Notes: a model not told the origin generated them from the letters alone. A stretch of DNA of 64,000 nucleotides from an uncultured Eubacteriales bacterium (GCA_900547975.1 URIX01000004.1:2719-66718); one strand, 5' to 3'. Positions 39,097 to 56,755 are shown, numbered from the stretch's first letter. Numbers and translations: made by a program.

Positions 39097-39203
39097 AATT
39101 TGTATGTGAATTATAAAATAATAACAACTAAAAAATAGAGTTAATTTTATAAGCAAATAAACACATTAAACGCCGATATTTGGAAATTACTATGTTTCCA
39201 ATC

Positions 39204-39330
39204 CTAAACTGCGCTAAATCGATGGATAACGCGAAAGAGACACCCGAACGGCAACCCTAATTTACTAATCGTAAATGAGTTGTCGGGCGGGTGTCTCTGA
39301 CAAAGTTAGGCGCGATTTAGCGCAGTTTAG
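39204..39330. repeat. Long-hairpin repeat, copy A (type 1)
   Basis: Outer stem CTAAACTGCGCTAAATCG/CGATTTAGCGCAGTTTAG is perfect over 18 bp. The core is ATGGATAACGCGAAAGAGACACCCG...CGGGTGTCTCTGACAAAGTTAGGCG. The 3' end contains the TAA stop of the UPF0210 gene. Confidence 0.9.
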
Positions 39331-40676
39331 TTCTTGTTGGACCAAATGGGGGCAGGAATTCTACCGCCACGAGCAATCAACCTCGAAGGCGAAGTTTGAT
39401 TGATAGGCATAATGGGGGCTGTGCCGAGAAGTCCGCCGAAAGATACGCTGCCCGAATTTTTGCCGTAAACGGGAATTACGCGGACGGCGGTGGTTTTGTT
39501 GTTGACCACGCCGATTGCGGATTCGTCGGCAATCATTGCGGAAATTACGTCGGCGGAAGTGTCGCCCGGGATTGCAATCATATCGAGTCCGACAGAACAA
39601 ATTGCGGTCATCGCTTCGAGTTTTTCGAGGGTTAGAACGCCTTTTTGTGCGGATTCTATCATTCCGATATCCTCGCTGACCGGAATAAACGCGCCGCTGA
39701 GTCCGCCGACGTGCGACGAAGCCATAATACCGCCCTTTTTCACGGCGTCGTTGAGAAGTGCGAGCGCGGCGGTCGTGCCGTATCCGCCAACTACGTCAAC
39801 GCCGATTTCTTCGAGGATATGCGCAACGCTGTCCCCTTTTACAGGTGTGGGCGCAAGGCTCAAATCTATGATTCCGAAATGCGCGTCAAGGCGTTTAGAC
39901 GCTTCTTGCGCAACGAGTTGTCCTACTCTCGTGATTTTGTAAGCAACTTTCTTTATGGTTTCGGCAACGACGGTCAAGTTTTCGCCTTTGACGTGTTTCA
40001 ACGCTTCTTCCACAACGCCGGGACCGCTTACACCTACGTTTATGACACAATCGTTTTCGCCTACGCCGTGGAACGCGCCCGCCATAAACGGATTATCTTC
40101 TACCGCGTTTGCGAACACCACGAGTTTTGCGCAGCCTATGCTGTCGTTTTCCCTTGTTAGATATGCGGTTTCTTTTATAATTTTGCCCATAAGAGCAACC
40201 GCGTCCATATTTATGCCCGCTTTGGTCGAGCCGATGTTTACGCTTGAACATACTTTCTTCGTGCAAGCGAGCGCGGCGGGTATGGATTCGATAAACTTTT
40301 TTTCGTACTCGGTCATACCCTTGTGTACGAGCGCGGAATATCCCCCCACAAAGTCCACTCCGATTTCGTCGGCGCATTCGTCGAGGACTTGTGCAACCTT
40401 TATCGAATCGCCGGTGTGTGCCGTGATTATGCTTATCGGTGTTACGCTGATTCGCTTATTTACGATTGGTATTCCGATTTCGTTTGCGATGTCGTCGCAG
40501 ACTTTGACGAGATTTTTCGCCTTGCTCACGATTTTGTCGTGTACCCTTTGGCATAGAACGTCGATATCGTCGCTCACGCAGTCGAGAAGGGATATTCCCA
40601 TCGTGACCGTGCGCACATCAAGGTGCTCGAAAGATACCATTTTGTTGGTTTCAACCACTTCGTTCGCGTTTATCAT
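39327..40676 (-). CDS. UPF0210 (DUF711) family protein
   Basis: [13 protein letters not shown]..., 449 aa, paired with the upstream small ACT protein as is usual for this family. Confidence 0.85.
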
Positions 40677-40685
40677 TTTCCAACC

Positions 40686-40955
40686 TCAAATACGGTGCAT
40701 CGACGTGAAAACCTGCTCGTTTTGAATGCGAATTTCAACGCCGAGTTCCTCGCCGAGCTTTGAAAGAGATTTGCTTATCGTCGCAAAATCCGCGTTGGAC
40801 TCGGACAAATCGACAAGCATAATCATTGTAAAATAGTCTTGCATAATGGTTTGAGAGATGTCTTGCACGTTGATTGCAAACTCGTAGAGCCGCGTGCTGA
40901 CTCTTGAAATTATGCCTCTTTGGTCTTTGCCGATGACAGATACAACCGCTTTCAT
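40686..40955 (-). CDS. ACT domain protein (UPF0237 family)
   Basis: MKAVVSVIGKDQRGIISRVSTRLYEFAINVQDISQTIM..., 89 aa. Confidence 0.85.
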   Translation of the reverse strand: MKAVVSVIGKDQRGIISRVSTRLYEFAINVQDISQTIMQDYFTMIMLVDLSESNADFATISKSLSKLGEELGVEIRIQNEQVFTSMHRI

Positions 40956-41042
40956 AGTCGTTCCTCTAAATTATTTATACTTGCAAAAAATTGATTGCAC
41001 GTTGAGTTTAGCATTGTAAATGCTATATGTCAATTTGATACG

Positions 41043-41068
41043 CAAAAAGCCCGATTTTTCGGGCTTTT
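41043..41068 (-). terminator. Intrinsic terminator after the PAP2 gene
   Basis: AAAAGCCCGA/TCGGGCTTTT stem followed by TTTTTG on the minus strand. Confidence 0.65.
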
Positions 41069-41134
41069 CGACGTTATTTTGAAGTTTGCCGACCGACAAA
41101 TATTGCGGCGGCATTTTTCTCTCTATACGAAAGA

Positions 41135-42400
41135 TTATTCGATAACCACGCCGTCTTTGAGATTGTCGGCGATTTCCTTGCCTATTTCGTTGGCTTGTTC
41201 GCTGCAAAGCGCGATTTCCTCGTTCTTGTCGTCGGAAACCGTGTTGTCGCTTTCGGTTTCGACTACGCTTTCGTCCGCAAGAGTTTCGAGAGCGTCTTCT
41301 TCGACGGTTTCGACGGGATTTTCAACCTCGATGTCGGCAGGAAGCGTAACCGCTTTCTTGGGTGCGAGGCGCGGGAACAACGCAAAGAAGTGACTTCCCT
41401 TGCACACGAAGATTTCACGCATAATAATGAAAGATACGAATGCGATTGTGCCGCCGAACGTGACGTCGCTCATATAGTGCGCGCCAACGACGATACGGCT
41501 GATTGCAACGAGCATCGTGATGACGATAGGCGTAACCCAGCAAGCGATTTTACCCGCCTTTTTATGCTTGAAGTCCACGACGTCGGGAAGCATAATGAGC
41601 GCGTACGACATACCTGCCGCGCAAGTATGACCTGACGGGAACGACTTGAACGCGTCGCTTGCGCCGGGATATACGTCGATAAACGAATTGATTATCGCCT
41701 CGTCGGGTTGACCGTTGCGAACATACCAAGGCGTATAGCCCTGCACCAACCCTGCGTTGATAAGGCGTTGACCGACGTTCGAGTTGATTGCTCTAAATCT
41801 CATACGACCGACCGGGTCTTTGACGAGGAGGATAATTATGTTTGCAAGCACGCAAGCCGCAAGAGCCGCAACCACCCACCATACGAGCCTTTTGAGCGTT
41901 TCCGCTTTCAAAGTACGAAGCGCAAGCACCGTAAGAGCCTGAATCGTGAGCGCAACGAGAACTTGACTTGCAACCACCGCGCCGTTGTGACGATATTCAT
42001 AAACCGCCGCGCCTGCCGCGCCGATTTCATTTGCGGCGTGCTCGATGACGTATTTCATCATATCTTTGATATAATACCACCAAGCGACCGTTCCCGCAAA
42101 CGCAAAAATGACAGCAAGAGCAATCGCCCATTTCTTTTTGTCAAAGCACTTTGCGAAATACCAACAAAGAATCGCCGTGCATAAACTCAAAAGAATGTAA
42201 ATCGGCGACGTGCCGACAGCCTCGCCCACTACGCCGAACAAATCGTTTGCAAGATATTCGCCGGGTTTCAACGCGTTTTTGGTGAGAATTTTGCTCACTT
42301 GAAAGTCGCAATAAGTCGCAACCAAAACGAGAGAAACAAACAACACCGCAAACAAGCACAGCGCAATTATCGTTTTTGATTTGATATTAAGAGATTTCAT
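41135..42400 (-). CDS. PAP2-family membrane phosphatase with acidic C-terminal tail
   Basis: SFPSGHTCAAG and SRIVVGAHYMSDV are PAP2 motifs C2/C3. Multiple TM helices. Confidence 0.8.
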   Translation of the reverse strand: MKSLNIKSKTIIALCLFAVLFVSLVLVATYCDFQVSKILTKNALKPGEYLANDLFGVVGEAVGTSPIYILLSLCTAILCWYFAKCFDKKKWAIALAVIFAFAGTVAWWYYIKDMMKYVIEHAANEIGAAGAAVYEYRHNGAVVASQVLVALTIQALTVLALRTLKAETLKRLVWWVVAALAACVLANIIILLVKDPVGRMRFRAINSNVGQRLINAGLVQGYTPWYVRNGQPDEAIINSFIDVYPGASDAFKSFPSGHTCAAGMSYALIMLPDVVDFKHKKAGKIACWVTPIVITMLVAISRIVVGAHYMSDVTFGGTIAFVSFIIMREIFVCKGSHFFALFPRLAPKKAVTLPADIEVENPVETVEEDALETLADESVVETESDNTVSDDKNEEIALCSEQANEIGKEIADNLKDGVVIE

Positions 42401-42632
42401 ACAATAACCCCTACAGTTTTTATTACTTTACATATTTTACCATACAACGGCGATTTTATCAATACATACCCTCAAAATTGTATGCAAAATATGCACAAAC
42501 CGTATTTTAATTGCCAATTTGTCCGATTTTTCGTTCAAAAGTATTCGCAAATTCGCTGATTTTTGAAATACTTTTGCCACATTCACTACACATTATCAAT
42601 GCCGAATACAATTCGCAATTGGAGGAAATAAT

Positions 42633-42776
42633 ATGCCGGGCGGCAAAATCCTGCCACCTTCAAAGGATAAAGCAAAGCGCACAGACAAAAATTGGGTATT
42701 GCAATATACAACGGGATATGATATATTAAGAGTAGCAAAAGATTCCTGCTATGTTTGTGATGATGCACTATTTTGA
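42633..42776 (+). CDS. Candidate 47-codon ORF (below the track cutoff)
   Basis: GGAGG lies 8 nt before the ATG. MPGGKILPPSKDKAKRTDKNWVLQYTTGYDILRVAKDSCYVCDDALF. No family recognised. Confidence 0.3.
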   Translation: MPGGKILPPSKDKAKRTDKNWVLQYTTGYDILRVAKDSCYVCDDALF

Positions 42777-42935
42777 ACCACAAATTTTATACGGGATGAC
42801 GCGTCCGACATAAATGCAGCGATGTCAAGCCTCGCAATTCAGTGGAAGACAGCAACTGCACGGCAGTCTTTACCCACCCTGCTATACGGCGGGTTTATAA
42901 AATGGCATCACACGGCGGTGCGGGATGGTCAAGAG

Positions 42936-42969
42936 AAAAACAGTCGCTCAATCGAGCGACTGTTTTTTT
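42936..42969. terminator. Strong bidirectional intrinsic terminator
   Basis: ACAGTCGCTC/GAGCGACTGT 10-bp stem flanked by AAAAA and TTTTTTT. Confidence 0.75.
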
Positions 42970-43047
42970 AAGTAATAAAAATTGATGTTTATATTATGTT
43001 GTGATACTTAAATGTTGATAAAAAAAACAAGCGTAACGTAAGGTTTT

Positions 43048-43169
43048 AAGCGCAATATTTGGATGAAGAACAAGGAAAAGACCTTTTGCGAATCCGCCCA
43101 ACGTACAAGAACGTACGTGACGGGTGAGCAAAATGTCTTTGACGCAGTGATTCGCCAAATAGTGCGCTT
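43048..43169. repeat. Long-hairpin repeat, copy B1 (type 2)
   Basis: Outer stem AAGCGCAATATTTGG/CCAAATAGTGCGCTT. Core ATGAAGAACAAGGAAAAGACC...GTCTTTGACGCAGTGATTCG. Apical stem ACGTAC/GTACGT. Confidence 0.85.
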
Positions 43170-43295
43170 GAGAGACTGCCAAATAGATACATAACGCGAA
43201 AGAGACACCAAAACAGCAATTCCAGTGTACATAGACGTACACGAATTGATGAGTGGGTGTCTCTGACAAAGTTAGGTGCTATTTGGCAGTCTCTC
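43170..43295. repeat. Long-hairpin repeat, copy B2 (type 1)
   Basis: Outer stem GAGAGACTGCCAAATAG/CTATTTGGCAGTCTCTC is perfect over 17 bp. Core ATACATAACGCGAAAGAGACACC...GGTGTCTCTGACAAAGTTAGGTG. Apical stem GTGTAC/GTACAC. It overlaps the aminopeptidase stop by 2 nt. Confidence 0.9.
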
Positions 43296-44520
43296 AAAAT
43301 GCCCAGTTGCCGTTGCGGAAAATGAGTATATCCTCCCCATCTCTCGTATGCGCCGTCACGTTAAGGTCTTGCGAGCCGATCATAAAGTCTACGTGTATGA
43401 TTGAATCGTTGATACCTTTTTGACGACATTCTTCGAGGGTGTATTTGTCGTAATCTTTGATACAATTCTCGAAACCGCGACCAAGTGCGAGGTGACAGCA
43501 GGCGTTCTCGTCGAACAAGGTGTTGAGGAAGGTTATTTCGGAATTGCGAATAGGCGAATCGTAAGGAACGAGAGCACATTCACCGAGATAAGCGGCGTTT
43601 TCGTCCATAGAAATCATTTGTTTGAGAAGTTCCTCGCCTTTTTCGGCGTGGACTTCGACCGCTTTGCCGTTTTCAAAGCGCACGGAAAAATTCTCGATGA
43701 GTTCGCCGCGATAAGATAGCGGGCGAGTTGCATAGACGACGCCTTCCGCTTTGCCCTTCATAGGCGATGTGAAAACTTCCTCGCTCGGAATGTTGGGATT
43801 GAACTCTACACCGCCGAGCGTAAACTCGCTTCCGCCGAGAAAGAGTGCGTCGGGAATGAGCCATACGGTAAAATTAGTGCCGTTAGATGACGTATAATGC
43901 AATGATTCGATGCCGAGCGAATTGAGATAATCGTATCTTGCTTTGAGGTCGGCGTTATGCTCGTTCCAAGCCTGAACGGGGTCGTTGCCGTCCGCTCTTG
44001 ACGTGTAAAGAATGGCGTTCCAAAGTTTTTCGACAGCTTTGCCGACTCTCTCGTTCGGGAACACCTTTTTCGCCCACGCTTCACCGGGGACTGCGGCGAT
44101 ACACCATTGATATTTGTTGTCCATTTGGTCGTGTAGGGGTTTTATGATAGGATAAATCGCTCTTTGCGCCTTTGCGACTTTGGATTGGTCCACGCCTTTA
44201 AGTCCGTCGGGGTCTTCCGATTCGATATATATAACCGCGGGAAGCGCGTCAACCTGATGTTTGAGTTTTTCGACTTGCCACTCGTCCATCATGGAAAGAG
44301 TTTTGAGCGAACGATAGCGATAGTTGACTTTCGTGAGCGGTTGATAATCCCACTCGACCGTAACTTTCTTTGCACCCTTTCGATAACATTCCTCAGCAAC
44401 CATTTTTACAAATTCGGGTTGGTCGAGTCCTGCACGGATGATGACTTCTTGATTTTTCTGCACGTTTACGCCCTTTTGAGCGATAAGACGAGCATATTTT
44501 TGCATAGTTGTTTTTTTCAT
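43294..44520 (-). CDS. Aminopeptidase, peptidase family M29 (AmpS/PepS-like)
   Basis: MQKYARLIAQKGVNVQKNQEVII...; 408 aa with the family-typical N-terminus and a HVDFMIG motif. Confidence 0.88.
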   Translation of the reverse strand: MKKTTMQKYARLIAQKGVNVQKNQEVIIRAGLDQPEFVKMVAEECYRKGAKKVTVEWDYQPLTKVNYRYRSLKTLSMMDEWQVEKLKHQVDALPAVIYIESEDPDGLKGVDQSKVAKAQRAIYPIIKPLHDQMDNKYQWCIAAVPGEAWAKKVFPNERVGKAVEKLWNAILYTSRADGNDPVQAWNEHNADLKARYDYLNSLGIESLHYTSSNGTNFTVWLIPDALFLGGSEFTLGGVEFNPNIPSEEVFTSPMKGKAEGVVYATRPLSYRGELIENFSVRFENGKAVEVHAEKGEELLKQMISMDENAAYLGECALVPYDSPIRNSEITFLNTLFDENACCHLALGRGFENCIKDYDKYTLEECRQKGINDSIIHVDFMIGSQDLNVTAHTRDGEDILIFRNGNWAF

Positions 44521-44609
44521 ACACTACACCTCTGTGCGTTCATATTTTGTGAATATTATATCATCTTTCGTCGTTATTTCAACAACATTTTACGCATTAC
44601 GCCAACAAA

Positions 44610-44995
44610 GGTTTTAAGCGCGGATATTTGAGCGACAGACAAGAAAGGCACATCTTGGATCAATCCTCAAAAAACCGCACATATTCGTAAAGCGCGATAT
44701 TTAGATGAAGAACAAGAAAGAGCCGTCCGAACGGCAACCCTAATTTACTTGTAGTAAATGAGTTGACGGACGATTGGTGATGACATAGTTATTGCCGTTT
44801 TAAGCGCGATATTTGAGTGGCAGACAAGAAAGGACATCTTGAATCAATCCTCAAAAACTGCACATATTCGTAAAGCGCGATATTTAGATGAAGAACAAGA
44901 AAGAGCCGTCCGAACGGCAACCCTAATTTACTATTCGTAAATGAGTTGACGGACGGACGGCTCTGCCGAAGTTATTCGCTAAATAGCGCGCTTTA
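44610..44995. repeat. Array of four long-hairpin repeat copies (type 2), arranged as a 186-bp tandem duplication
   Basis: The unit starting GTTTTAAGCGCG recurs at 44611 and 44797. Each unit is a degenerate copy plus a full copy. The last copy (44871-44995) has outer stem TAAAGCGCGATATTTAG/CTAAATAGCGCGCTTTA and ends 3 nt from the reductase stop. Confidence 0.9.
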
Positions 44996-44998
44996 CAC

Positions 44999-47053
44999 TT
45001 ACAGTTTCATTGCAACATCCCAAGCACCCCAAATTACAGTGCGAAGGTTGCCGACTTTTGCGCTGTCGCCGACGACGTGAACGTGTTTGCTCTCTTGCGC
45101 GACGGGCGCGGGTCTGTAACCGACGGACATAATGACGGAATCTGCGGGAATCTCGAATTCTTTGCCGTCTTTGGACGCAACTTTAACGCCGTTGTCGGTG
45201 ACCGCAACGAGTTTGGTTTCGAGATGCACGGGCACTTTGTGAAGTGCAAAGTATTCTCTCAAATAGGACGAGTTTGCAAGGCATACGCCCTTGACTGCGA
45301 TAAGGTCGTTCTTCATCTCGACGATAGTCGGGTGTTTGCCTTGAAGTTGCAATTCGTATGCGATTTCGCAACCTGTCAAGCCACCGCCAATGATGACGAC
45401 GTTGTCGCCTACTTCTTTGTTTCCGAGCAAGAAATCGCACGCTTCGACGGTCTTTTCGACGCCGGGGACGTTGAAACGTCTTGCCACTGCGCCCGTTGCC
45501 ACGACGACTTCGTCTGCGTCGAGTTTGTTTACGTCGTCAACTTTGACGCCGTACTTCACTTCAATGCCCAAATCTTTGATTTGCTTTTTGTACCACTCGA
45601 TAAGTTCTTTATCTTTCTCTTTGAAAGACGGTGCTGCCGCCGCTACGAAAATGCCGCCGAGATCGTTGGATTTCTCGTAAATGGTGACTTTATGACCACG
45701 CAACGTTGCGACTCTTGCAACTTCCATACCGCCGATACCACCGCCGACGACGGCGATCTTCTTGGATTTGGTTGCGGGAACGATCTTGTATTTCTTGGAT
45801 TGCATCGTGTGCGGATTGAGTGCGCAACGAGCCATTCCTGCGGTATCCGACAAATCCTGATCGTTTGCAACGCCGTTGTAGTGCGCCATATTGAAGCAAG
45901 CGTTATGGCAGCAAATGCAAGGCATAATGTCGTCTTCTCTGCCTTGAATGAGTTTGGTGACCCATTCGGGATCGGTGAGGAATTGACGGGCGACGCCCAT
46001 ACCGTCGATTTTGCCTTCCGCAATAGCCTTTGCGCCGACTTCGGGGGTCATACGACCTGCGCAAACGACAGGAATATCGACTGCTTTTTTGAGTTCTTCA
46101 CAATCTGCGAGGTTGCAGTTTTGCGGCATATATACCGGCGGATGCGCCCAGTACCACGCGTCGTACGTACCGTTGTCCGAGTTGAGCATATCGTAACCTG
46201 CGTCTTGAAGCATTTTGGCTGCGATTTTGCTTTCTTCCATATCGCGACCGACTTCGACGTAATCTTCACCTGGAAGCGCGCCTTGACGGAAGCCTTTGGT
46301 CTTGGATACGACGGAATATCTCAACGAAACGGGATAATCTTCGCCGCATACTCTCTTGATTTCCTTGACGATTTCGATGGGGAAACGGTATCTGTTTTCG
46401 ATTGAACCGCCGTACTCGTCGGTACGTTGGTTGGTGTATTTCATCGTGAATTGGTCGAGCAAATATCCTTCGTGGACCGCGTGGATTTCAACGCCGTCAA
46501 CACCTGCGTCTTTGCACATTTTTGCGGTTTTGCCGAACGCTTTGATAAACTCGTGAATCTCGTCGATAGTCATTGCTCTGGACGGCACTTTGTCACTCCA
46601 ACGGTTGGGATTGGGACTCGCGCTCATCGTGAGTTGATCGATATTGATAAACGGCTTTGCGATTGCACCCAAAACTTTGTTTGTGGCAATCATTTCCATA
46701 AGTCCGGTGATTGCAAAAGAACGTCCGAAACCTGCGGTGAGTTGCACAAACATCTTCGCGCCCGTCTTGTGGATTTCTTCCATAAAGGGTTTGAGGTGTT
46801 TGAAAGAACTCTTGCTTTTGTAAAGCCAGTTTCCGCCGATAACGTTTCTGATGGGTGCGATACCCGGCAAAATAAGACCGACGTTGTTCTTTGCCCTATC
46901 GAGCAAGAAGTTTGCGGCTTCTTCGTCGAAGTGATGCGGTTCCATCCAGCCGAAGATTGAAGTTCCGCCCATAGAAGTCAACACGATGCGGTTTTTTATC
47001 TCGCATTTGCCTATCTTCCAAGGGGTAAACAAACTTTGATATTTGGGATCCAT
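44999..47053 (-). CDS. Old-yellow-enzyme-type NADH:flavin oxidoreductase fused to an FAD/NAD(P) domain (2-enoate / 2,4-dienoyl-CoA reductase family)
   Basis: OYE TIM-barrel N-half, CICCHNAC iron-sulfur motif, then VVGGGIGGMEVA and IIGGGLTGCEIA Rossmann motifs. 684 aa. Confidence 0.85.
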   Translation of the reverse strand: MDPKYQSLFTPWKIGKCEIKNRIVLTSMGGTSIFGWMEPHHFDEEAANFLLDRAKNNVGLILPGIAPIRNVIGGNWLYKSKSSFKHLKPFMEEIHKTGAKMFVQLTAGFGRSFAITGLMEMIATNKVLGAIAKPFINIDQLTMSASPNPNRWSDKVPSRAMTIDEIHEFIKAFGKTAKMCKDAGVDGVEIHAVHEGYLLDQFTMKYTNQRTDEYGGSIENRYRFPIEIVKEIKRVCGEDYPVSLRYSVVSKTKGFRQGALPGEDYVEVGRDMEESKIAAKMLQDAGYDMLNSDNGTYDAWYWAHPPVYMPQNCNLADCEELKKAVDIPVVCAGRMTPEVGAKAIAEGKIDGMGVARQFLTDPEWVTKLIQGREDDIMPCICCHNACFNMAHYNGVANDQDLSDTAGMARCALNPHTMQSKKYKIVPATKSKKIAVVGGGIGGMEVARVATLRGHKVTIYEKSNDLGGIFVAAAAPSFKEKDKELIEWYKKQIKDLGIEVKYGVKVDDVNKLDADEVVVATGAVARRFNVPGVEKTVEACDFLLGNKEVGDNVVIIGGGLTGCEIAYELQLQGKHPTIVEMKNDLIAVKGVCLANSSYLREYFALHKVPVHLETKLVAVTDNGVKVASKDGKEFEIPADSVIMSVGYRPAPVAQESKHVHVVGDSAKVGNLRTVIWGAWDVAMKL

Positions 47054-47245: not shown

Positions 47246-47264
47246 CACAAAGCAATAACGATTT

Positions 47265-47340
47265 GCCCTCATGGTCAAGCGGTTCAAGACGTCGCCCTCT
47301 CACGGCGGAAACTAGGGTTCGATTCCCTATGGGGGTACCA
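47265..47340 (+). tRNA. tRNA-Glu (anticodon CTC), CCA encoded
   Basis: Hand-folded cloverleaf: acceptor GCCCTCA/TGGGGGT (G1-U72 and U5-G68 wobbles), D arm GTC-AAGCGGTTCAA-GAC, anticodon arm TCGCC-CTCTCAC-GGCGG, T arm TAGGG-TTCGATT-CCCTA. Closely resembles B. subtilis tRNA-Glu. Confidence 0.88.
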
Positions 47341-47343
47341 AAG

Positions 47344-50762: not shown

Positions 50763-50845
50763 AATATGTTTTGTCTATAATTAAGATTGAGATTAAGATT
50801 TGTTCGCTCACCCATAAAATGAAATATTTGGATGAAGAACTTGGT

Positions 50846-50970
50846 CACAATCGTTCTTTGAGATGAAGAACAAGGAAGACGCTTCTGCACGGCAATTCCA
50901 ATTTACTTGGCGTAAATGAGTTGTCGTGCAGTGGCGTCTGACGCAGTTATTCGCTCAAAGAACGATTGTG
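50846..50970. repeat. Long-hairpin repeat, copy D (type 2)
   Basis: Outer stem CACAATCGTTCTTTGAG/CTCAAAGAACGATTGTG is perfect over 17 bp. Its 3' arm is the last 13 coding nt plus the stop of the HMA gene. Core ATGAAGAACAAGGAAGACGC...GCGTCTGACGCAGTTATTCG. Confidence 0.9.
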
Positions 50971-51173
50971 CAGTCGGGTTCGATTTTACGGCAGGTCTTC
51001 ACAACCCTCTTCATAATATCGTCAAAGTTTGCGTCATCGGCTTCGATTGTGAGACGTTGAGCCATAAAACTGACGGACGCGTTTTGTACGCCGTCAAGTT
51101 TTTGAATGGCACATTCCATTTTTGCGGCGCAATTTGCACAATCGAGATCTTCGAGTTTGTAAACTTTTTTCAT
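50955..51173 (-). CDS. Stand-alone heavy-metal-associated (HMA) domain protein
   Basis: YKLEDLDCANCAAKMECAIQKLDGV is the CxxC ferredoxin-like HMA fold usually found fused at the N-terminus of CadA-type ATPases. Confidence 0.85.
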   Translation of the reverse strand: MKKVYKLEDLDCANCAAKMECAIQKLDGVQNASVSFMAQRLTIEADDANFDDIMKRVVKTCRKIEPDCTIVL

Positions 51174-51253: not shown

Positions 51254-51269
51254 TTGAACAACTGTTCAA
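51254..51269. promoter_or_regulatory. Candidate ArsR/CadC operator upstream of the HMA gene
   Basis: TTGAACA-AC-TGTTCAA with 7-bp perfect arms. An extra half-site TTGAACA lies at 51238. Confidence 0.45.
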
Positions 51270-51324
51270 ATATTGCTTCTAAAAAATCAGGGGTTTGCAC
51301 CCTGCGTTTTTAGACGGCGAGGAA

Positions 51325-51654
51325 TTATTTTTCCTCGTTGACGTGAGTCAGACCGCACTGCATTATGAGCGTAACGTGGTCGTCGTCGAGAGAATATCTG
51401 ACTTCCTTACCTTCTTTTGTGCCTTTGACGAGTTTGATTGCGCGAAGCACGCGAAGTTGGTGAGATACGGCGGAAGTGGTCATACCGAGTTTGTCGGCGA
51501 TGTCCCCTACGTTCATATCGCTTGCTTGCAAGCAACTCAAAATTTTAACGCGGGTCGGGTCGCCAAGAGCCTTGAACAATTCTGCAAGCGCAGATACCAC
51601 GTCGTCGGCAGGAAGCGTTGAATTTTGGGTGTTGTCTTTGATTTCTACTGTCAT
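51325..51654 (-). CDS. ArsR/SmtB-family metalloregulator (CadC-like)
   Basis: LFKALGDPTRVKILSCL...VGDIADKLGMTTSAVSHQLRVLR winged HTH. Start at ATG 51654 with SD GGAGAGAAAG. Confidence 0.85.
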   Translation of the reverse strand: MTVEIKDNTQNSTLPADDVVSALAELFKALGDPTRVKILSCLQASDMNVGDIADKLGMTTSAVSHQLRVLRAIKLVKGTKEGKEVRYSLDDDHVTLIMQCGLTHVNEEK

Positions 51655-51669
51655 CTTTCTCTCCAACAC

Positions 51670-51692
51670 TTGAACTGTTATTCAAATGTTCA
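51670..51692. promoter_or_regulatory. Candidate ArsR/CadC operator upstream of the regulator gene
   Basis: TTGAACTGTTATTCAA plus TGTTCA, the same half-sites as at 51254. Lies immediately upstream of the regulator's RBS. Confidence 0.45.
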
Positions 51693-51870
51693 TTTATATA
51701 TTATTCCCGATTAAGTCGTTTGTCAACGAATATTTGCAAAAATATTAATTATTTTTCGGATACTTTTTCCGCTTTTCGGCACTGCGGCAGATTTTCGGCG
51801 CGCAATATCAATCAAAGTGTAAACTATCGAACAAAATCCGATTTCACAGAAAAACTTTTCAGATTCGATA

Positions 51871-51899
51871 TTGATTTTAATTTATATTTAATGTACAAT
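51871..51899 (+). promoter_or_regulatory. Sigma-A promoter for the giant metallophosphoesterase gene
   Basis: TTGATT, 17 nt, TACAAT. Lies 49 nt upstream of the ATG; SD AAGGAGG. Confidence 0.55.
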
Positions 51900-51947
51900 C
51901 GTATAGAAAGAATTATTTGCGCGCGTATGCGTGCATAAGGAGGAAAT

Positions 51948-54900
51948 ATGAGCAACAAAATGCAAAGACATCTGCCTTTGGTGTTCGTCGTCGCTCTCGC
52001 AATCGTTCTTGCGAGCGTTATGACGTTCTCGATTGCAGGCATTGCAAACGCCGACAGTCAAAAGACGCCGACCAACTCTCTTATGATCGGTCAATTCAGC
52101 GACATTCACTACTTCCCCGTCGACGATTGCTATCAAGACATCCAAAGTCCCGACTACAAAACGAGCGACTTCTACAATTCTATGACGGGCGACACCAAAC
52201 TCGTTATGGAAAGCGGTATGATCCTCAAACAACAAATCGAGCAATACATTGCCGACGCGAAGAAAGGAAAAGCACCGCAATACGTTTTCGCTTCGGGCGA
52301 CCTTAGCAAAAACGGCGAGGTCACCGCTCTCGTTGACGTTGCAAACGCATTGCGTTATATGCAAAACGAGATAAGAAAGATATCGGGTTATGAGAACTTC
52401 CAAGTTTTCGCAACGCCGGGCAACCACGACCTTTACAACACGTCGGGCGCGCTCTACTCGAAAACCGACGGTTCTAAACGCGTTTCCGACGCGTTGACGA
52501 CGATGCAATTCGCTCTCGTCTTTGCAGGTTTGGGCTATCCGAACGCAAACCTTGACGGAAGCGACGGCGCAATCAACCTCACAGAGTATTTGCCCGCAGA
52601 GTACTGGTACGGCGAGTACACAACCGATTATATTCCGTCCAAAAACGCGGATACGCTTGAAATCCACTACTACAACGAGCACATCGAAGCGGTCAACAAC
52701 ATGAACGCTTCCAAAACAACCGCCGACAAACTCAACGAATACTATCAAATCGGCGACGTAAACAACGCTCTTTCCTTGTCGGCGGAAATCAAAGTTGCCG
52801 ACTATAAGGATTATGCGCTTATGGTTATCGACGCTCACGATAGAGAGTCGGCGGAAGTCGGCGCATACGTCAGAGTGAACGAAGCGGAATATAACGTTAT
52901 CCGCAACAACAAGCAAGCAAACGGCGAAAATTACACTTTCTACGGCGCAACCGAAGAAGGCGCGGTCGATACCTCGACGACAATCGATGCCGAAGCCGCT
53001 TTCGCTGCAGGTAAAACCGTGTTCCGTTCGACAGGTCTCGACCACCTCTGCGGCGGCAGACTCACCGAAGGCGTGCTCGATTGGATGGAAAAATTCTGTG
53101 ACGCAAGAAACGCTGCCTCTAATCTCGGTGAAGCCACCGTCATCGCTTGCTTCCACCAGAACGCGCTTCCGCACTGGGAAATGGAAGACGAAATCCTCAA
53201 AGACTTCACCATCTACAACTGGGAAAACACCGCAAAACGCTTGCTCGATATGGGCACTCGCTACGTCTTCACGGGACATATGCACGTTTGCGACGCTATG
53301 ACCTACACCGACGTAGAGGGCAGAACGCTCTACGATTTCCAAACGGGTTCTTGCGTAAGTTACTATTCACCCAGAAGATACACCACACTCGAAAGATATA
53401 ACTTTGACGGAAAACTCGGCGAAGCCTGCATTTCTTCCGTATTCTGCCTCGACGACATAAGCGCAACGCCGTTTAAGGAAGTGCCGAGCCACAACGTGTT
53501 CACCGCACCGGCATTCAACGACGAAACTTTCCAAACCGCATACAAGGCGTACAAACTCGACCCCACCGAAGCAAAATGGCAGGCTGTCGTTGCAACCAAC
53601 CCCGACTATCTCGCATATATGATTAACTACGAGAATATGAACGCGCTCGGTTACAACGATTACATCAACGAACAAATCTATTCGATTCTTGTTGAAAGAG
53701 TTGTCGATCATTTCCTCAATCAAAGTACAATAGACGGACTCGTAGGCTCCGTTATGAATATGGTTGGCGGCGACAACACCGTACTCGGAATAGTCCGCAG
53801 CACCTTGTTTGCCGACTTCAAAAAGAGCGAAGACCCCGATTTGTACAAAGAATACGGCAATTTGGACGCCGATGAAAAGGCCGACGCCCTCAACGGACTT
53901 GTCAAATACATTCTCGACACCGTTCTCGAAGGCGTGACGTACGTCCATAACGACACGAATTACAATTCCGCACTCGACCTCGTAAATGCGGTCGTCAACG
54001 AAGTGCTTTCTTGGAAATTCGGCGACGACAGCATCGTATCCGCAGTCAATCCGAGAAATAGCGGCAAGATGCTCATTACCGATATCGCTGCATTCATTAT
54101 GACCGCTCATACGATGGGTATGGAAATTTCTCTCGACGAGACCGCAGAATCCATCAAGGCGATTTTCGGCGAGGAACAAAAAGTCGAAGACGGCAAGGAT
54201 TACCTTTTCAAGCACCCCTACAACCCCACCTATCGTTTGCGTATGGTAGCGGCGGTAAACGATATGCACGAGCAACTCATCAGCGGCAAATTCGTTGAAA
54301 ATTTGCTCACGACGTTGCTGAATCCCATCTTTACCGAAGACGGTTCGTTGCTCAAAACCATTCTCAATCATAAGTTCGATTTCGGCGACGCGGTTGACAA
54401 AGGCTATATGACAGAAGCGGCGTTTGAACACCTCAAAAAAGGTTTGGGCTCGAAACTTCCGTCCGTTTTGAATATGACGGCAGTCAAAAACGTTCTTGCA
54501 AAACTCGGCGTTGAAATTTCCCTTCCCGCAGACTACTCTATCGACGCGGAAAACTTCGTTCTCGTCAACGTTATCAACGATTTGCTTCCCGCAATCAAGA
54601 CTCTCGTTGCGAAACTTCTCGGCTTCTCGCTCGAAGGTCCGGACGTTATATCCATCGTTCAAAATTTCCTCGACAGTTATCTCGTCGACAGTTTCTACAA
54701 GGGACTCGGCGGCATTGCCGACGACATCGTGATTACGTTTGCAACCGACGTCTATCCCGATATGGACGACTTTGCTACCCCCCAAAAGCCTTCATACTAT
54801 CAACCCAACAAAGCGTATGAAAAGGACGGCGTGCGCCTCTCTTACCTCAGCACTCTCAACGAAGGCTCTAAGGTCGGCGCAGAATTCAACGCGGCAACGC

Positions 54901-56516
54901 AAGACAACGGCAGAGTTCCTTCTCGCGTGACTGCAAACTTCGATACTGCCAACTCTACAACTTCCTACACGATTAAGTTCTACACCGAAGAAAACGTGTA
55001 CGGAACGTTCAGACTCTTTGACGAAAACGGCAACAAGATAGGCGATGTAAGCACTTCTAAATCCGCCGCGCTCAAAGCGTATGCGACAAACAAGACCGAT
55101 TATCTCGACACGACGGCTTACAAAGAGTTCTCGAACGGAGTAAAAGCGACGGTATTCACTCAAACCAAACCGCAATACATTCCGCTCATCGACCTCGGAC
55201 TTCTCTGCCTCACTCACGGTCAAATCGTCGACAAGGACAACAACGACAAGCCGTACGTCTACGGTGACCGTGACAAAGCGGTTGCAAACAGCGTTATTTA
55301 CTGGAACGTCCACACCGTCACCATCAACGGTCTCGAAGCAGGCAAAACCTACTACTACGACATTCTCGGCAACTACGAAACCGACGGCGAACCCCTCGAA
55401 TTCTCTTTGGTCGAATACATCAAGACTCAAGGCTACGAAGGCAACGCCCTCACGTTCACGACGGCTGTCGGCAGAGACGTAGACGCATTCGAATTCCTCA
55501 CTATCGCGGACATTCAGGGTATGATTCAGAGTATGTACGACAACAGCCACGAGGCAGTCGACGCACTTCTTAAAGACGAAAGAGTCAACGCCTTCGATTT
55601 CATTCTCAACGCAGGCGATATGTGCGACAACGGCAAGAACTTCAATCAATGGGGTATGGCTCTCGACACCTATCAAGACCTCACGCTCAACACTTCCGTA
55701 TTCTTCACGTCGGGCAACCACGAGAACAATACGGGCGCAATGGGCAGATACTTCAACTACACCGAAAAGGTCGGCGAAGAAATTAAGGCAATAAGCGGCG
55801 AATACTATTCCTTCGATTACGCAAACGCACACTTCACCGTTCTCAACACCAACGACGCGTCCACCGACGGACTCGGCGAGGCTCAACTCGAATGGCTCAA
55901 AAACGACCTTGCGAACACAGACGCTAAATGGAAATTCGTGCTTATGCACAAGAGTTTGTACAGCGCAGGTTCGCACGCGTTCGACGGCGAAGTCAAGGCT
56001 ATGAGAGGGCAACTCACCACTCTCTTTGCAGAGCAAGGCGTAAACGTCGTGTTCGGCGGTCACGACCACTCCTACACCGCCACCTATCTCGTTGACAAAG
56101 ACGGCAAGGTCGTTGACAAAACGAGCAAAGACGGCGTGCGTTACACCGGCGACGGCGTTCTCTACATCACGCTCGGCACACTCGGCACGAAGTTCTACAA
56201 CTATAGAGAGAACGATATGACCACCGACAAATTCAACAAGGACGACAGCATACTTCACACGCTCGATTCTCAAACGTTCGGCAAGGTCAAAGTCGAAGGC
56301 GACACGATCACTTTCACGGGTTACTACTTCAACAGAGCAACCGGCAAAATCGATCAAATCGGCAACAGCACCGTTCTCGGCACAACGCCTATAAAGGACA
56401 ACAAACTTACGGTTATCCTTCTTTCCACCCTCATTCCGGGCGTGGCAGTGATAGGCGTAGGCACAGGACTTGGCGTCTACTTCGCAAAGAAGAAAAAAGC
56501 AAAAATCAGTGCTTAA
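51948..56516 (+). CDS. 1522-aa secreted, C-terminally membrane-anchored protein with two metallophosphoesterase domains (the second is purple-acid-phosphatase-like)
   Basis: Signal peptide MSNKMQRHLPLVFVVALAIVLASVMTFSIAGIANA. Domain 1 has SDIHYF, SGDLSKNG, PGNHD and TGHMH. Domain 2 is preceded by an FN3-like WNVHTVTINGLEAGKTYYYDI and has NAGDMCDNG, SGNHEN, VLMHKSLY and GGHDHSY. The C-terminal TM is ILLSTLIPGVAVIGVGTGLGVYF followed by KKKKAK. No LPXTG motif. Confidence 0.85.
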   Translation: MSNKMQRHLPLVFVVALAIVLASVMTFSIAGIANADSQKTPTNSLMIGQFSDIHYFPVDDCYQDIQSPDYKTSDFYNSMTGDTKLVMESGMILKQQIEQYIADAKKGKAPQYVFASGDLSKNGEVTALVDVANALRYMQNEIRKISGYENFQVFATPGNHDLYNTSGALYSKTDGSKRVSDALTTMQFALVFAGLGYPNANLDGSDGAINLTEYLPAEYWYGEYTTDYIPSKNADTLEIHYYNEHIEAVNNMNASKTTADKLNEYYQIGDVNNALSLSAEIKVADYKDYALMVIDAHDRESAEVGAYVRVNEAEYNVIRNNKQANGENYTFYGATEEGAVDTSTTIDAEAAFAAGKTVFRSTGLDHLCGGRLTEGVLDWMEKFCDARNAASNLGEATVIACFHQNALPHWEMEDEILKDFTIYNWENTAKRLLDMGTRYVFTGHMHVCDAMTYTDVEGRTLYDFQTGSCVSYYSPRRYTTLERYNFDGKLGEACISSVFCLDDISATPFKEVPSHNVFTAPAFNDETFQTAYKAYKLDPTEAKWQAVVATNPDYLAYMINYENMNALGYNDYINEQIYSILVERVVDHFLNQSTIDGLVGSVMNMVGGDNTVLGIVRSTLFADFKKSEDPDLYKEYGNLDADEKADALNGLVKYILDTVLEGVTYVHNDTNYNSALDLVNAVVNEVLSWKFGDDSIVSAVNPRNSGKMLITDIAAFIMTAHTMGMEISLDETAESIKAIFGEEQKVEDGKDYLFKHPYNPTYRLRMVAAVNDMHEQLISGKFVENLLTTLLNPIFTEDGSLLKTILNHKFDFGDAVDKGYMTEAAFEHLKKGLGSKLPSVLNMTAVKNVLAKLGVEISLPADYSIDAENFVLVNVINDLLPAIKTLVAKLLGFSLEGPDVISIVQNFLDSYLVDSFYKGLGGIADDIVITFATDVYPDMDDFATPQKPSYYQPNKAYEKDGVRLSYLSTLNEGSKVGAEFNAATQDNGRVPSRVTANFDTANSTTSYTIKFYTEENVYGTFRLFDENGNKIGDVSTSKSAALKAYATNKTDYLDTTAYKEFSNGVKATVFTQTKPQYIPLIDLGLLCLTHGQIVDKDNNDKPYVYGDRDKAVANSVIYWNVHTVTINGLEAGKTYYYDILGNYETDGEPLEFSLVEYIKTQGYEGNALTFTTAVGRDVDAFEFLTIADIQGMIQSMYDNSHEAVDALLKDERVNAFDFILNAGDMCDNGKNFNQWGMALDTYQDLTLNTSVFFTSGNHENNTGAMGRYFNYTEKVGEEIKAISGEYYSFDYANAHFTVLNTNDASTDGLGEAQLEWLKNDLANTDAKWKFVLMHKSLYSAGSHAFDGEVKAMRGQLTTLFAEQGVNVVFGGHDHSYTATYLVDKDGKVVDKTSKDGVRYTGDGVLYITLGTLGTKFYNYRENDMTTDKFNKDDSILHTLDSQTFGKVKVEGDTITFTGYYFNRATGKIDQIGNSTVLGTTPIKDNKLTVILLSTLIPGVAVIGVGTGLGVYFAKKKKAKISA

Positions 56517-56525
56517 CTAAAAAAT

Positions 56526-56555
56526 GCGCTCACCGAACGGTGAGCGCTTTTTTTT
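56526..56555 (+). terminator. Intrinsic terminator after the giant gene
   Basis: GCGCTCACCG/CGGTGAGCGC stem followed by TTTTTTTT. Confidence 0.8.
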
Positions 56556-56611
56556 AATTAATAATGAATAATTAATAATTAATAATTTTGGGTGGGCTCT
56601 GCCCACACCCG
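56556..56611. repeat. (AATTAAT)x4.5 plus GC-rich hairpin element, copy 2 (inverted relative to copy 1)
   Basis: AATTAATAATGAATAATTAATAATTAATAATTTT followed by GGGTGGGCTCTGCCCACACCC. Its reverse complement aligns with 32864-32910. Confidence 0.7.
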
Positions 56612-56626
56612 ATTAAATATCTGCAA

Positions 56627-56755
56627 GATTCGATGCGCTAAATCGATGCATAACGCGAAAGAGGCACTCGCTCGGCAACCCTAATTTACTAATCGTAAAT
56701 GAGTTGTCGAGCGAGTGCCTCTGACAAAGTCAGGCGCGATTTAGCACATCGAATC
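56627..56755. repeat. Long-hairpin repeat, copy E (type 1)
   Basis: Outer stem GATTCGATGCGCTAAATCG/CGATTTAGCACATCGAATC is 19 bp with one mismatch (C opposing A on the plus strand). Core ATGCATAACGCGAAAGAGGCACTCG...CGAGTGCCTCTGACAAAGTCAGGCG. The 3' arm encodes the last 4 codons and the stop of the HIT gene. Confidence 0.9.

Follow-up and report, generated by a model that had tools for sequence, protein, structure and literature searches.

What is a long hairpin doing when it turns up again and again at the ends of ordinary genes, pointing the same way each time? The window, meaning the whole 64-kb stretch of DNA that was analysed, comes from an uncultured Eubacteriales bacterium and raises this question five times. 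A covariance model of the repeat was built from 94 diverse copies and scanned across the full window with filters off. It finds 7 copies in a single orientation, spanning 39203-56755. The first-pass annotation had already put all copies in one orientation, and the six full copies it described agree with the model coordinates within 1-3 nt. It had also reported none in the first 39 kb or the last 7 kb, and with filters off the model has no copy above noise in 1-39 kb or 57-64 kb. The other model matches comprise echoes of five copies on the opposite strand (36-59 bits) and four matches at 13-14 bits (E 0.4-0.9). The host genes are identified by Pfam as DUF711/UPF0210, M29, an OYE-type reductase, HMA and HIT, the same five that had been named from the sequence. 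No transposase or recombinase domain is present in any tested ORF of the window, which bears out another of the annotation's statements. The element is absent at many gene ends of the window, for example those of tig, clpP and clpX.

Copies within the window

The copies, their fragments and one stop codon are given below. The strand is that of the upstream gene.

39171-39183, minus strand: remnant CGCCGATATTTGG, far-side arm of an older copy near copy A
39203-39331, minus strand: copy A, full hairpin directly 3' of the DUF711 gene, 137.5 bits
39327-39329, minus strand: TAA stop of the DUF711 gene (39327-40676), within copy A's outer arm
43050-43167, minus strand: copy B1, gene-distal, abuts B2, 87.2 bits, z = -5.8
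43168-43297, minus strand: copy B2, gene-proximal, at the M29 aminopeptidase gene, 121 bits, z = -11.7
about 44613-44685, minus strand: partial, degenerate copy of about 72 nt, the first of the C cluster's two, weak model match of 13.3 bits
44686-44815, minus strand: copy C1, degenerate full copy, 81.8 bits, z = -3.0
about 44796-44868, minus strand: degenerate partial copy of about 72 nt, duplicate of 44613-44685
44869-44997, minus strand: copy C2, gene-proximal, at the OYE-type/enoate reductase gene, 147.6 bits, z = -10.2
50821-50840, minus strand: remnant GAAATATTTGGATGAAGAAC, far end of an older copy near copy D
50845-50971, minus strand: copy D, at the HMA gene end, 117.4 bits, z = -9.0
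56627-56755, minus strand: copy E, at the HIT gene end, 130.4 bits, z = -14.0

Copy A in the model orientation reads GATGGATAAC...GTTAGGCG on the plus strand. Its outer arms are 39204-39221 and 39313-39330, and its fold energy is -65.4 kcal/mol (z = -10.3 by RNA folding). Copy B1 has a variant apex (..CAACGTAC/GTACGTG..), and B2 has taken the place of the outer end of its near arm. Three further copies had been claimed to run back from C2 to 44610. Copy material is present there, but it is really one degenerate full copy (C1) and two partial pieces. C1 has a decayed near-side half and an intact inner hairpin, and the piece at 44613-44685 starts like a far-side arm (AAGCGCGGATATTTGAG...). The C cluster is a 183-nt unit in tandem duplication: 44670-44793 and 44853-44976 are 90% identical at a spacing of 183. 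The two end fragments that had been listed are real, and both are remnants of far-side arms. The one at 39171-39183 also closes off a partial second copy in L010 and L129, both close relatives, and the gene-proximal copy of L131 has it as an intact arm. The older copy behind 50821-50840 is still full at the same gene end in L002.

Fold and anatomy

The element measures about 130 nt and forms an imperfectly palindromic hairpin with halves of about 60 nt each. Outermost are arms that form 16-19 bp. Next come a short helix (GATGAAGAAC / GTTATTCGC) and a 6 x 7-nt internal loop, which is conserved. The middle stem has 10-11 bp and is hypervariable, and the rod ends in a conserved apical hairpin whose loop is closed by invariant TAC/GTA pairs. 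Arm length peaks at 16-19 nt (86/128 copies). The window and 114 loci of about 20 genomes together have 132 near-full copies. In the fold 93.1% of cells pair, compared with 68.2% in shuffles and 32-40% with slid partners. Double changes are found at 38 of the 42 pairs of the rod fold, and the covariation is very strong and present in every helix. Six of the window copies have fold z-scores of -5.8 to -14.0 by RNA folding, and C1 has -3.0. The rod proposed from the window alone holds there, and it holds across about 20 other genomes as well.

Some departures from perfect pairing are kept too. One T-G pair of the short helix, a U-G wobble on the plus strand, is found in 91/94 copies. This pair, an A-G at arm position 13 and a bulged A all persist despite homogenisation of the arms. 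The unpaired motifs are kept across about 20 species. A kink-turn in the loops and an outward promoter in the apex (TCGACA-16-TAAATT) were both considered and rejected, since by eye neither is kept among the apex variants.

The annotation did not recognise the hairpin as any RNA family, and neither does Rfam release 15. Only tRNA reaches the gathering score in the whole window. With E up to 10 the copies in 39-57 kb draw only generic microRNA-precursor hairpins, far below threshold, and ten related loci give tRNA only. A group II intron or other known RNA was rejected, since there is no Rfam match for the hairpin or for the second repeat that follows it in relatives.

Position at the stop codon and orientation

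The element sits on the stop codon of ordinary genes, and its orientation is fixed relative to the gene. The stop lies inside the outer arm at 39327-39329 (A), 43294-43296 (B2), 50955-50957 (D) and 56741-56743 (E). In B2 the outer arm TGAGAGACTGCCAAATAG holds the TGA of the M29 aminopeptidase gene. The stop of the OYE-type reductase (44999-45001) is 2 nt past copy C2. Each cluster in the window is thus at the stop of a minus-strand gene, as the annotation had it, and the same holds across relatives. A convergent ORF stop falls within -16 to +22 nt of the conserved 3' motif in 102/132 copies versus 15% of random intergenic anchors. On that side a gene tail borders the element in 103/125 copies. 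Where two genes converge the orientation of the element still tracks its own gene (L017, L104, L040). Copies also stack in tandem, and decayed remnants are always gene-distal of the intact copy.

Several simple causes of this placement can be discarded. A sequence motif in the gene end is rejected as the target because the 30 nt 5' of the stop have zero information content. Stops in three frames do not explain the orientation: the entry segment is stop-enriched, but alike in both orientations. Replication-strand bias does not explain it either, as convergent genes a few hundred nt apart hold copies of opposite orientation. Strain-level presence and absence was looked for at site D and is not seen in the places shown, where the spacing is the same in 10/10. 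The identical HMA protein is found on 21 contigs.

The far arm as an inverted copy of the gene end

Two features escaped the first-pass annotation, namely the far arm as an inverted gene end and the shuffling of modules between copies. Time and again the far arm repeats, in inverted form, the last 16-18 nt of the host gene. In copy D the final 16 nt of the HMA gene (CACAATCGTTCTTTGA) make up the near arm, and the far arm (50846-50861) is an exact inverted copy of those 16 nt. At the orthologous site in L015, which is empty, the protein ends in the same DCTIIL*, and the near arm is therefore the gene's own sequence. The far arm of copy E (GATTCGATGCGCTAAATCG) mirrors the last codons of the HIT gene (GATTCGATGTGCTAAATCG). 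The orthologous sites in L090 and L002 are both occupied. In L090 a 28-nt far arm tracks its own species' gene end with 3 mismatches, and in L002 the far arm matches the gene end in part only. Further arms copied from gene ends are found in L048/L111 (17/17 nt), L062 (18 nt) and L050/L085 (16 nt). In L062 a distal remnant of an older copy is retained and still mirrors the old gene end.

The arm extends at least 6 nt into coding sequence in 36% of stop-adjacent copies. In L070 the far-arm extension matches the end of another gene, that of the L013 locus, which suggests that the extension travelled with the element. In one gene the last five codons diverge far more between species than the remainder does. 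Where 16-18 nt of a far arm match unique coding sequence, point mutation and selection are not sufficient to make them, and templated copying is needed.

Distribution, turnover and mosaicism

The family is restricted to a clade of uncultured gut Clostridia, and is found in about 20 related gut Clostridia MAGs besides this one. The NCBI labels of the carriers include 'Christensenella sp. UBA...', 'Firmicutes bacterium CAG:238', 'CAG:475' and 'Clostridiales UMGS...'. There is no match to the element in plasmid and phage collections. An origin from viral contigs was rejected: the four pattern matches are chance, and the element is absent from those contigs.

Copies are replaced and modules reshuffled between close relatives. 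Cores that are 97-100% identical are found at unrelated, non-orthologous genes in five genomes. Core identity at orthologous sites is 0.60-0.79, about that of random pairs (0.71), even where the flanking CDS are 90-100% identical. At such sites the family member has often been replaced by an unrelated one. Locus A has four allelic states among close relatives, and between L129 and L131 the arms there are the same while the inner hairpins have been swapped between conserved boxes. The moved unit is apparently bounded by the foot of the stem and not by a fixed sequence (L070 versus L013). Replacement or presence-absence polymorphism at orthologous sites, together with near-identical copies at unrelated sites, is what marks a mobile element, and both were found. 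Empty orthologues occur only in distant relatives (L015, L035, L067, L030, L005), where the intergenic DNA is unalignable.

The element is a mosaic. The internal-loop motifs and the apex are conserved, and the outer arms and middle stem are hypervariable and assort independently. The outer arms have a mean identity of 0.51 between copies, and some are wholly host coding sequence. Arm identity and middle-stem identity are hardly correlated (r = 0.11). The two sequence subtypes that had been proposed are too simple, because arms, loop motifs, middle stem and apex are combined almost independently of one another.

A non-autonomous mobile element of the REPIN or MITE kind had been suggested. Mobility or turnover is supported by the near-identical cores at non-orthologous genes, the replaced orthologues and the alleles of locus A. 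The rest is not supported in that form: no consistent target-site duplication was seen in the flanks of the copies, no autonomous partner was found in about 850 kb and no RAYT or transposase in the window, and the arms differ between copies where a conserved terminal repeat would be expected. TA at both ends would suit 5/7 members of one young subfamily, but it is inseparable from the palindromic arm end. A TA duplication is contradicted by arms that end in TGA and by gene-derived arms. An autonomous partner was sought in the window and 114 loci (about 850 kb). There are no split half-copies there, and none of the 626 ORFs of at least 120 aa is recurrent or multi-copy. Pairs of copies at least 95% identical within a genome number 2/479, with 7-14 copies sampled per genome. 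Active MITE transposition would be expected to give more.

What may maintain the element

We argue, with roughly even confidence, for a non-autonomous recombining DNA hairpin element that is co-transcribed as a terminator-like 3' end and whose stems are kept paired by arm-to-arm templating. Complementarity of the stems would be preserved, and carried on into the gene end, chiefly by events in the DNA itself, most likely template switching of the quasipalindrome type during replication. Exchange between copies may use the conserved loop motifs as homology. The element would be transcribed with the upstream gene, and its inner hairpin and U-rich tail may act as or replace an intrinsic terminator or a 3'-end protecting hairpin. 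Co-transcription and a 3'-end role would account for the fixed orientation. The asymmetric loops and mismatches appear to be under selection, because they are kept despite the pull toward a perfect palindrome, and they probably form the binding site of a putative protein.

The sequence past the inner hairpin bears on the terminator part of this argument. The next 10 nt hold 6.0 U in the gene orientation versus 2.9 in the opposite one. The tail is UUUCUUGUUC or UUUCGCGUUA, a tract broken by C and G. A simple terminator scan flags a small sub-hairpin in C1 and C2 only. Separate canonical terminators follow copy A (39071-39095) and copy E (56526-56547), so a terminator role is unnecessary at these two sites. 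At an orthologous site in L004 only AGAGCCGTCCG-ATTTT-CGGACGGCTCTTTC is kept. The empty orthologues L035, L067 and L030 have an ordinary terminator shortly past the stop, and L005 has none that is clear.

A different scenario, which we consider unlikely, makes the hairpin the substrate of a structure-guided gene-end system. A putative enzyme would read the loops and apex, place the module precisely at an ORF end or exchange it there, and copy a fixed 16-18 nt of upstream flank, inverted, to the opposite side. The stem foot would then set the limits of the mobile unit. The regular copied size, the carriage to a new gene (L070 versus L013), the lack of a sequence target and the sharp pile-up at stop codons are consistent with such a system.

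The annotation had offered a structured 3'-UTR RNA module as its other choice. At its fullest this is a host-beneficial RNA at the start of the 3'-UTR, which would stabilise the mRNA, provide a processing site or act as a regulated terminator. The pairing would be kept by selection for the RNA fold, the loops would bind an RNA-binding protein or RNase, and the module would spread by ordinary recombination and not by transposition. The orientation fixed to the upstream gene and the U-rich tail support it indirectly, and the position at that gene's stop codon fits. So do the very strong covariation in all helices, the unpaired motifs kept across about 20 species, the one compensated pair by which the orthologous copies in L090 and L002 differ in the middle stem, the constant spacing at site D and the lack of a within-genome burst of identical copies. 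However, an RNA should leave a wobble signature, and G-U and A-C mismatches turn up about as often on one strand as on the other (127 versus 94 with the conserved T-G pair excluded, and about 99 versus 82 in a hand tally of a second pair table). These counts, near symmetric bar that one pair, do not single out a functional strand. Termination at the inner hairpin would also keep the short helix and outer arms out of the RNA, though these are the best paired. The far arms that match unique coding sequence require templated copying, the identical cores at unrelated genes of different species point to movement, and many genes of the window (tig, clpP and clpX among them) do without the module. 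We find this scenario unlikely as a whole.

A folded single-strand recombination site, like attC or the hairpin substrate of a tyrosine or HUH enzyme, would need a dedicated putative recombinase that installs and exchanges modules at gene ends. The layout is attC-like: a box of 7-9 bp whose inner ends read AAC and GTT, then 6-7 nt of unpaired central spacer per side, and after that a long, variable, bulged stem. The copies that the annotation called type 1 carry GCCTAAC and GTTAGGC. attC sites range from 57 to 141 nt, and the core from AAC box to GTT box, about 95 nt by hand count, falls within this. The site at or over the upstream stop in a fixed orientation, the mismatches and bulges that survive arm homogenisation, the inner hairpin swapped between conserved boxes and the moved unit that seems limited by the stem foot would all make sense for such a site. 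Yet AAC/GTT is not invariant, being compensated to AGC/GCT in 10/94 copies, and attC sites do not have outer arms beyond the box. The host genes are dispersed housekeeping genes 1.5-6 kb apart with no cassette array and no nearby integrase, and the loci examined have no recurrent ORF that could be the recombinase. We regard this reading as quite unlikely.

It is very improbable that the functional strand is the one opposite to the neighbouring gene (plus in the window), encoding a small antisense RNA over the stop-codon region: the plus strand folds more stably in A, B1, B2 and D and holds the conserved U-G wobble of the short helix, but it has no terminator-like tail, no wobble asymmetry apart from that one pair and no conserved promoter, only weak 9/12 consensus matches that are not kept among apex variants.

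Consequences

The element is locked onto stop codons although it has no recognisable sequence target. The last codons of the host gene are written into its far arm, and its hypervariable stems and conserved loops are exchanged as modules among closely related genomes. Should a dedicated mechanism lie behind this, it would be a new way to mark or cap gene ends and could also make the last few codons of proteins vary. It must be noted that there are practical effects too. Several contigs terminate within a copy, and the family breaks assemblies of abundant uncultured gut bacteria. It also gives rise to spurious ORFs, and it could be usable as a strain marker.

Comparison with known systems

Among dispersed hairpin repeats we know of no parallel to the stop-codon lock, the arm copied from the gene end or the module shuffling, and a search of the literature found none. 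SPRITE is a dispersed non-coding repeat of about 100 nt with an intrinsic-terminator-like fold and a bias to gene 3' ends, so it resembles the present family in size, dispersal, fold and position (PMC3184786). Compared by description, it differs in that its hosts belong to another phylum, and the available portion of that review describes it without stop-codon overlap or flank-derived arms (PMC3184786).

ERIC/IRU (127-bp imperfect palindromes of enterobacteria) and Correia/NEMIS (Neisseria) are alike in size, in the single long imperfect hairpin and in having no ORF. They are co-transcribed with neighbouring genes, with effects that depend on orientation, and they have conserved terminal sequences and TA duplications. 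In contrast, the arms of the present element vary between copies and there is no consistent duplication. We know of no tie of either to stop codons. Consensus pieces of ERIC, Correia and BOX, incomplete and so a weak test, give 0 matches in the window with up to 3 mismatches.

A REPIN is likewise a hairpin of two inverted halves. REPIN populations are long-lived, show compensatory evolution and depend on a single-copy enzyme in trans. The present halves are about 60 nt, however, and not REP units of 20-40 nt. REP tags are GTAG or CGTC (PMC3733652). Inspection of the aligned copies by eye showed neither tag at their ends, and no RAYT gene was found in the window. The outer arms also differ from the ends of a MITE: they pair within a copy but are no shared, conserved terminal inverted repeat.

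The likeness to attC is in structure kept more than sequence and in a similar size range (for example the 123-126-nt repeats of Vibrio cholerae). It extends to AAC/GTT boxes that flank an unpaired spacer, to the bulges of the stem, and to a site at or over the upstream ORF stop in a fixed orientation. The differences are the extra outer arms of 16-19 bp, the covariation of AAC/GTT to AGC/GCT and the dispersal among core housekeeping genes with no cassette array or integrase. An integron attC reading was rejected on the covarying boxes and on the lack of an array or an integrase in the window.

Template switching homogenises and extends the arms of inverted repeats (PMC8794818, PMC7202029, PMC13100816). 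Flank-derived far arms fit one arm copied from the other in this way. A quasipalindrome template switch is a general mutational process, and it leaves the conserved asymmetric loops and the dispersal to many genes unaccounted for. It also gives no account of the first insertions at stop codons or of the regular copied size of 16-18 nt.

To our knowledge the family is previously undescribed. It belongs with ERIC, Correia, SPRITE and REPIN to the broad class of dispersed hairpin repeats.

Copies in the window and in related genomes

Direct-repeat detection places the hairpin family at ~39.2, 43.1-43.3, 44.6-45.0, 50.8 and 56.6 kb of the window. A covariance model was built from an alignment of 94 diverse copies (window plus related genomes) and run on all 64 kb with filters off. 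It finds seven copies, with identical orientation in all of them.

Covariance-model matches in the window
39203-39331, copy A
43050-43167, copy B1
43168-43297, copy B2
44686-44815, copy C1, decayed
44869-44997, copy C2
50845-50971, copy D
56627-56755, copy E

The first-pass annotation had claimed this family and its uniform orientation, and the model confirms both. It had also seen no copies across the first 39 kb and the final 7 kb, and the filters-off scan finds no credible copy in either. Five of the copies also have opposite-strand echoes (36-59 bits), and the only other matches in the window are four at 13-14 bits (E 0.4-0.9). The seven copies are packed into 17.6 kb, and the preceding 39 kb, with similar minus-strand genes, has none. 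As claimed, gene stops overlap or adjoin the copies: each of the DUF711, M29, HMA and HIT genes has its stop within the outer arm of a copy, and C2 ends 2 nt from the OYE-type reductase stop. Every copy does fold as a single rod, with z-scores of -5.8 to -14 in six and -3 in the decayed C1. The C cluster is a tandem duplication of a 183-nt unit, each unit holding a ~72-nt partial piece and a full copy. Older copies left the two short "end fragments", which are remnants of their far-side (gene-distal) arms.

Other genomes were searched with the exact apical-hairpin pattern, one genome per species. More than 114 stretches among the matches listed come from ~20 gut MAGs, with labels including Christensenella sp. 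UBA6880, UBA7571, UBA7588 and UBA767, Firmicutes bacterium CAG:238 and CAG:475, and Clostridiales UMGS. A match in a Paceibacteria MAG was rejected as chance; the element is absent there. The closest relatives of the window among the matches listed have 89-95% nucleotide identity across syntenic stretches. A profile search gives 200 hits, and 132 near-full copies are present across the window and 114 of the loci among the matches listed. The same pattern gave four matches in 2.9 million viral contigs, all chance, and there was no match in the plasmid and phage collections. Rfam, proposed for checking, has no match to the element. Loci from related gut Clostridia genomes are given L-numbers below.

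The labels Phascolarctobacterium succinatutens, Butyrivibrio crossotus and Anaeroplasmataceae are attached to assemblies CAVBBF (L007, L016, L107), CAVANK (L015, L037) and CAVKUX (L008, L026). The assemblies are syntenic with the window at 78-94% nucleotide identity (CAVANK lowest, 75-88%), and these labels look wrong. Several MAG contigs start or stop within a hairpin copy (L107:1, L015:1, L073:2, L100:1, L076:2651 and others), so the family fragments short-read assemblies of these species.

Position at stop codons

Stop distances were measured from the last C of GTTATTCGC and cluster at four places. Copies outside these clusters are mostly second members of tandem arrays.

Stop position relative to GTTATTCGC
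+12 to +16, outer arm end, 57 copies
+4/+5, inside the arm, 8 copies
0/+1, inner arm end, 15 copies
-7, TAAC of the short helix, 12 copies

Proximity to stop codons had been claimed from sequence alone and a tabulation proposed. That tabulation puts a stop within -16 to +22 nt in 102 of 132 copies, against 15% for random intergenic anchors in the same loci. A gene tail is the neighbour on the GTTAKKCG side in 103 of 125 copies, all oriented alike. Where convergent genes each have their own copy (L017, L104) the two are oppositely oriented, so orientation tracks the gene and not the replication arm. Arm-end stops are TAA in 52 of 60 cases and TGA in 8. No motif is present in the 30 nt of coding sequence preceding the stop.

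Fold and modules

The conserved rod fold is borne out in relatives. Standard pairs fill 93.1% of cells in the 94-copy alignment, against 68.2% in a shuffled control and 32-40% with slid partners, and compensated double changes occur at 38 of 42 pairs. The three TAC/GTA pairs that close the apical loop are invariant in this alignment. Conservation of the element is modular.

Mean pairwise identity by module
Short helix plus 6 x 7 internal loop, 0.80
Apex, 0.75 (inflated by the search pattern)
Outer arms, 0.51
Middle stem, 0.47

Arm similarity and middle-stem similarity are nearly uncorrelated (r = 0.11), and middle stems are <60% identical in 69 of 112 copy pairs whose arms are at least 90% identical. 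The "two subtypes" of the first-pass annotation are therefore two of many module combinations, and that division is too simple. Some mismatches last across species: a T-G pair in 91 of 94 copies, a bulged A, and in many copies an A-G mismatch mid-arm.

Some copies carry a 53-nt insert, GACGCGATTGACGCAAGCGTATCAATCGCTATTCCGTCACTTCGTTCCTTACA, at one same point of the internal loop (L110 ~930-985, L010 ~2260-2320, L129, L131). Part of it is also found alone beside other copies (L016).

Arms and copied gene ends

Ungapped arm complementarity beside the core has a sharp peak at 16-19 nt (86 of 128 copies). One young subfamily has similar arms, TAAAACC[G/T]CGCTATTGA, at unrelated genes, so arms normally travel with the element. 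These arms vary by compensated changes while the core remains identical.

Pairing extends at least 6 nt into coding sequence in 36% of stop-adjacent copies. In these copies the far arm repeats the host gene's own end in inverted form.

Far-arm copies of gene ends
Copy D, 16 nt
L048 and L111, 17/17 nt
L062, 18 nt, one mismatch
L050 and L085, 16 nt extending a 13-nt element arm
Copy E and its L090 orthologue; in L090 a 28-nt far arm follows its own species' codons with 3 mismatches

The far arm of the E orthologue in L002 matches the gene end only partially. The copied flank segment is regular in size, at 16-18 nt. At D the gene side is the template and the far side the copy, since the C-terminus encoded in the empty orthologue L015 is the same. 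The far-arm extension of L070 mirrors the gene end at the L013 locus and not that of its own neighbour, which suggests that a captured extension may move with the element. The moved unit would therefore be bounded by the stem foot. Arm-to-arm copying may also rewrite the gene C-terminus, as sequence comparison hints. We consider it unlikely that a dedicated structure-guided mechanism underlies stop-codon locking and flank capture.

Orthologous gene ends were compared at L024:716, L048:4612, L111:166, L062:4764, L051:5011 and L080:4094. One gene's last five codons (ISSMI*, INAML*, LNEMA*) diverge between species far more than the preceding codons in a 45-nt stretch.

Level of pairing and role at the 3' end

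With the conserved T-G pair left out, G-U-type mismatches (127) are about as common as A-C-type (94). A second tally from the 94-copy pair table gives ~45 versus ~36 for the inner stems, and for the outer stem ~54 versus ~46. These counts hold no RNA-style wobble signature on either strand. Since the two types are about equally common, the data fit pairing maintained in DNA. According to PMC8794818, PMC7202029 and PMC13100816, when a polymerase switches templates at imperfect inverted repeats the arms become more alike and longer, and hairpins can be created and maintained. Because such switching would drive the arms towards a perfect palindrome, we infer that the lasting asymmetric loops and mismatches are selected.

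Only the tail after the inner hairpin (UUUCUUGUUC, UUCCUUGUUC or UUUCGCGUUA) is clearly orientation-specific: it is U-rich on the gene strand (6.0 U of 10 versus 2.9 on the other strand). L004 carries, at an orthologous site, a deleted form reduced to the middle stem and this tail. Three of four empty orthologues (L035, L067, L030) have an ordinary terminator soon after the stop, and L005 has no clear one. On the strength of the tail, the L004 remnant and these terminators, we favour the reading that the element would be co-transcribed with the upstream gene in a terminator-like or 3'-end-protecting role. A separate canonical terminator also follows copy A, and another follows copy E.

Turnover and spread

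Mean core identity is 0.696 both within and between genomes, copies do not cluster by genome, and of 479 pairs from the same genome just 2 are at least 95% identical. Cores at orthologous gene ends resemble each other no more than random pairs do. Core identity is <0.8 in 8 of 15 orthologous pairs with flanking coding sequence 90-95% identical, and 0.56-0.65 in both pairs with flanks at least 95% identical. Locus A, the DUF711 gene end, has four states among the window and three metagenome contigs. The window's arm and loop type is unlike the contigs', and L129 and L131 have common arms and loop motifs with wholly different inner hairpins. All four keep an identical outermost remnant. Remnants of older copies are invariably gene-distal (A, D, L062), and that of L062 still mirrors an earlier version of the gene end. 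Unrelated genes in five different genomes carry cores that are 97-100% identical. Over the time in which species diverge the family is therefore exchanged and re-seeded, and the sampled copies show no recent burst.

Genomic context

The window is core chromosome from a spore-forming member of Clostridia. It contains the dcw/mur cluster, ftsA, ftsZ, spoIIGA, sporulation sigma factors, tig, clpP, clpX, dnaK, dnaJ and prmA. The window had been said to lack transposase and recombinase genes; this holds among the tested ORFs, none of which has a transposase, integrase or reverse-transcriptase domain.

Other features in the window
47265-47337 (+), tRNA gene, 58.5 bits, between the reductase and PNP-family genes within the repeat-rich stretch; conserved in L026
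42740-42930 (+), weak 6S RNA-like match over the full model length, 29 bits (gathering score 46.4), E = 0.015, located between the PAP2 gene and copy B1; a possible divergent 6S RNA gene
39071-39095, bidirectional terminator hairpin GAAACGCGC-AAATAAC-GCGCGTTTT of the NFACT gene, with that gene's stop (39083-39085) in its loop; many hairpin-element arms have an A-tract plus GCGC portion that is similar to the stem
61490-63454, 35693-37198, 34083-35570, 17554-19053 and 29147-30718 (+), long ORFs opposite real genes

One of these five ORFs matches Pfam NAD-GH, a family we take to be an antisense artefact of dnaK. The others face trigger factor, clpX/clpP, ftsZ/ftsA and mraW, and Pfam matches mark the latter as the real genes. 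The antisense ORFs would misguide a longest-ORF gene caller.

A second repeat family of ~300 nt, unrelated to the hairpin element, is abundant in related genomes and absent from the window (L071:2501-2880, whose reverse complement is the seed, L029:118-380, L107:6146-6418, L067:3100-3371, L019:3181-3471 and ~45 other loci). It has no Rfam match. In most of about a dozen loci checked it lies 40-150 nt gene-distal of the hairpin in the same orientation relative to the gene. At L067 that gene end has no hairpin and the repeat is reversed.

Comparison with known families

The element does not pass the membership tests for REP/REPIN or for integron attC sites. Unlike a MITE it is without conserved terminal repeats, a target duplication is not demonstrable, and no autonomous partner was found. 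It shares a long imperfect hairpin with ERIC and Correia, and with REPINs a hairpin made from two inverted halves. The nearest family in behaviour is SPRITE, which PMC3184786 describes as terminator-like and biased to 3' ends.
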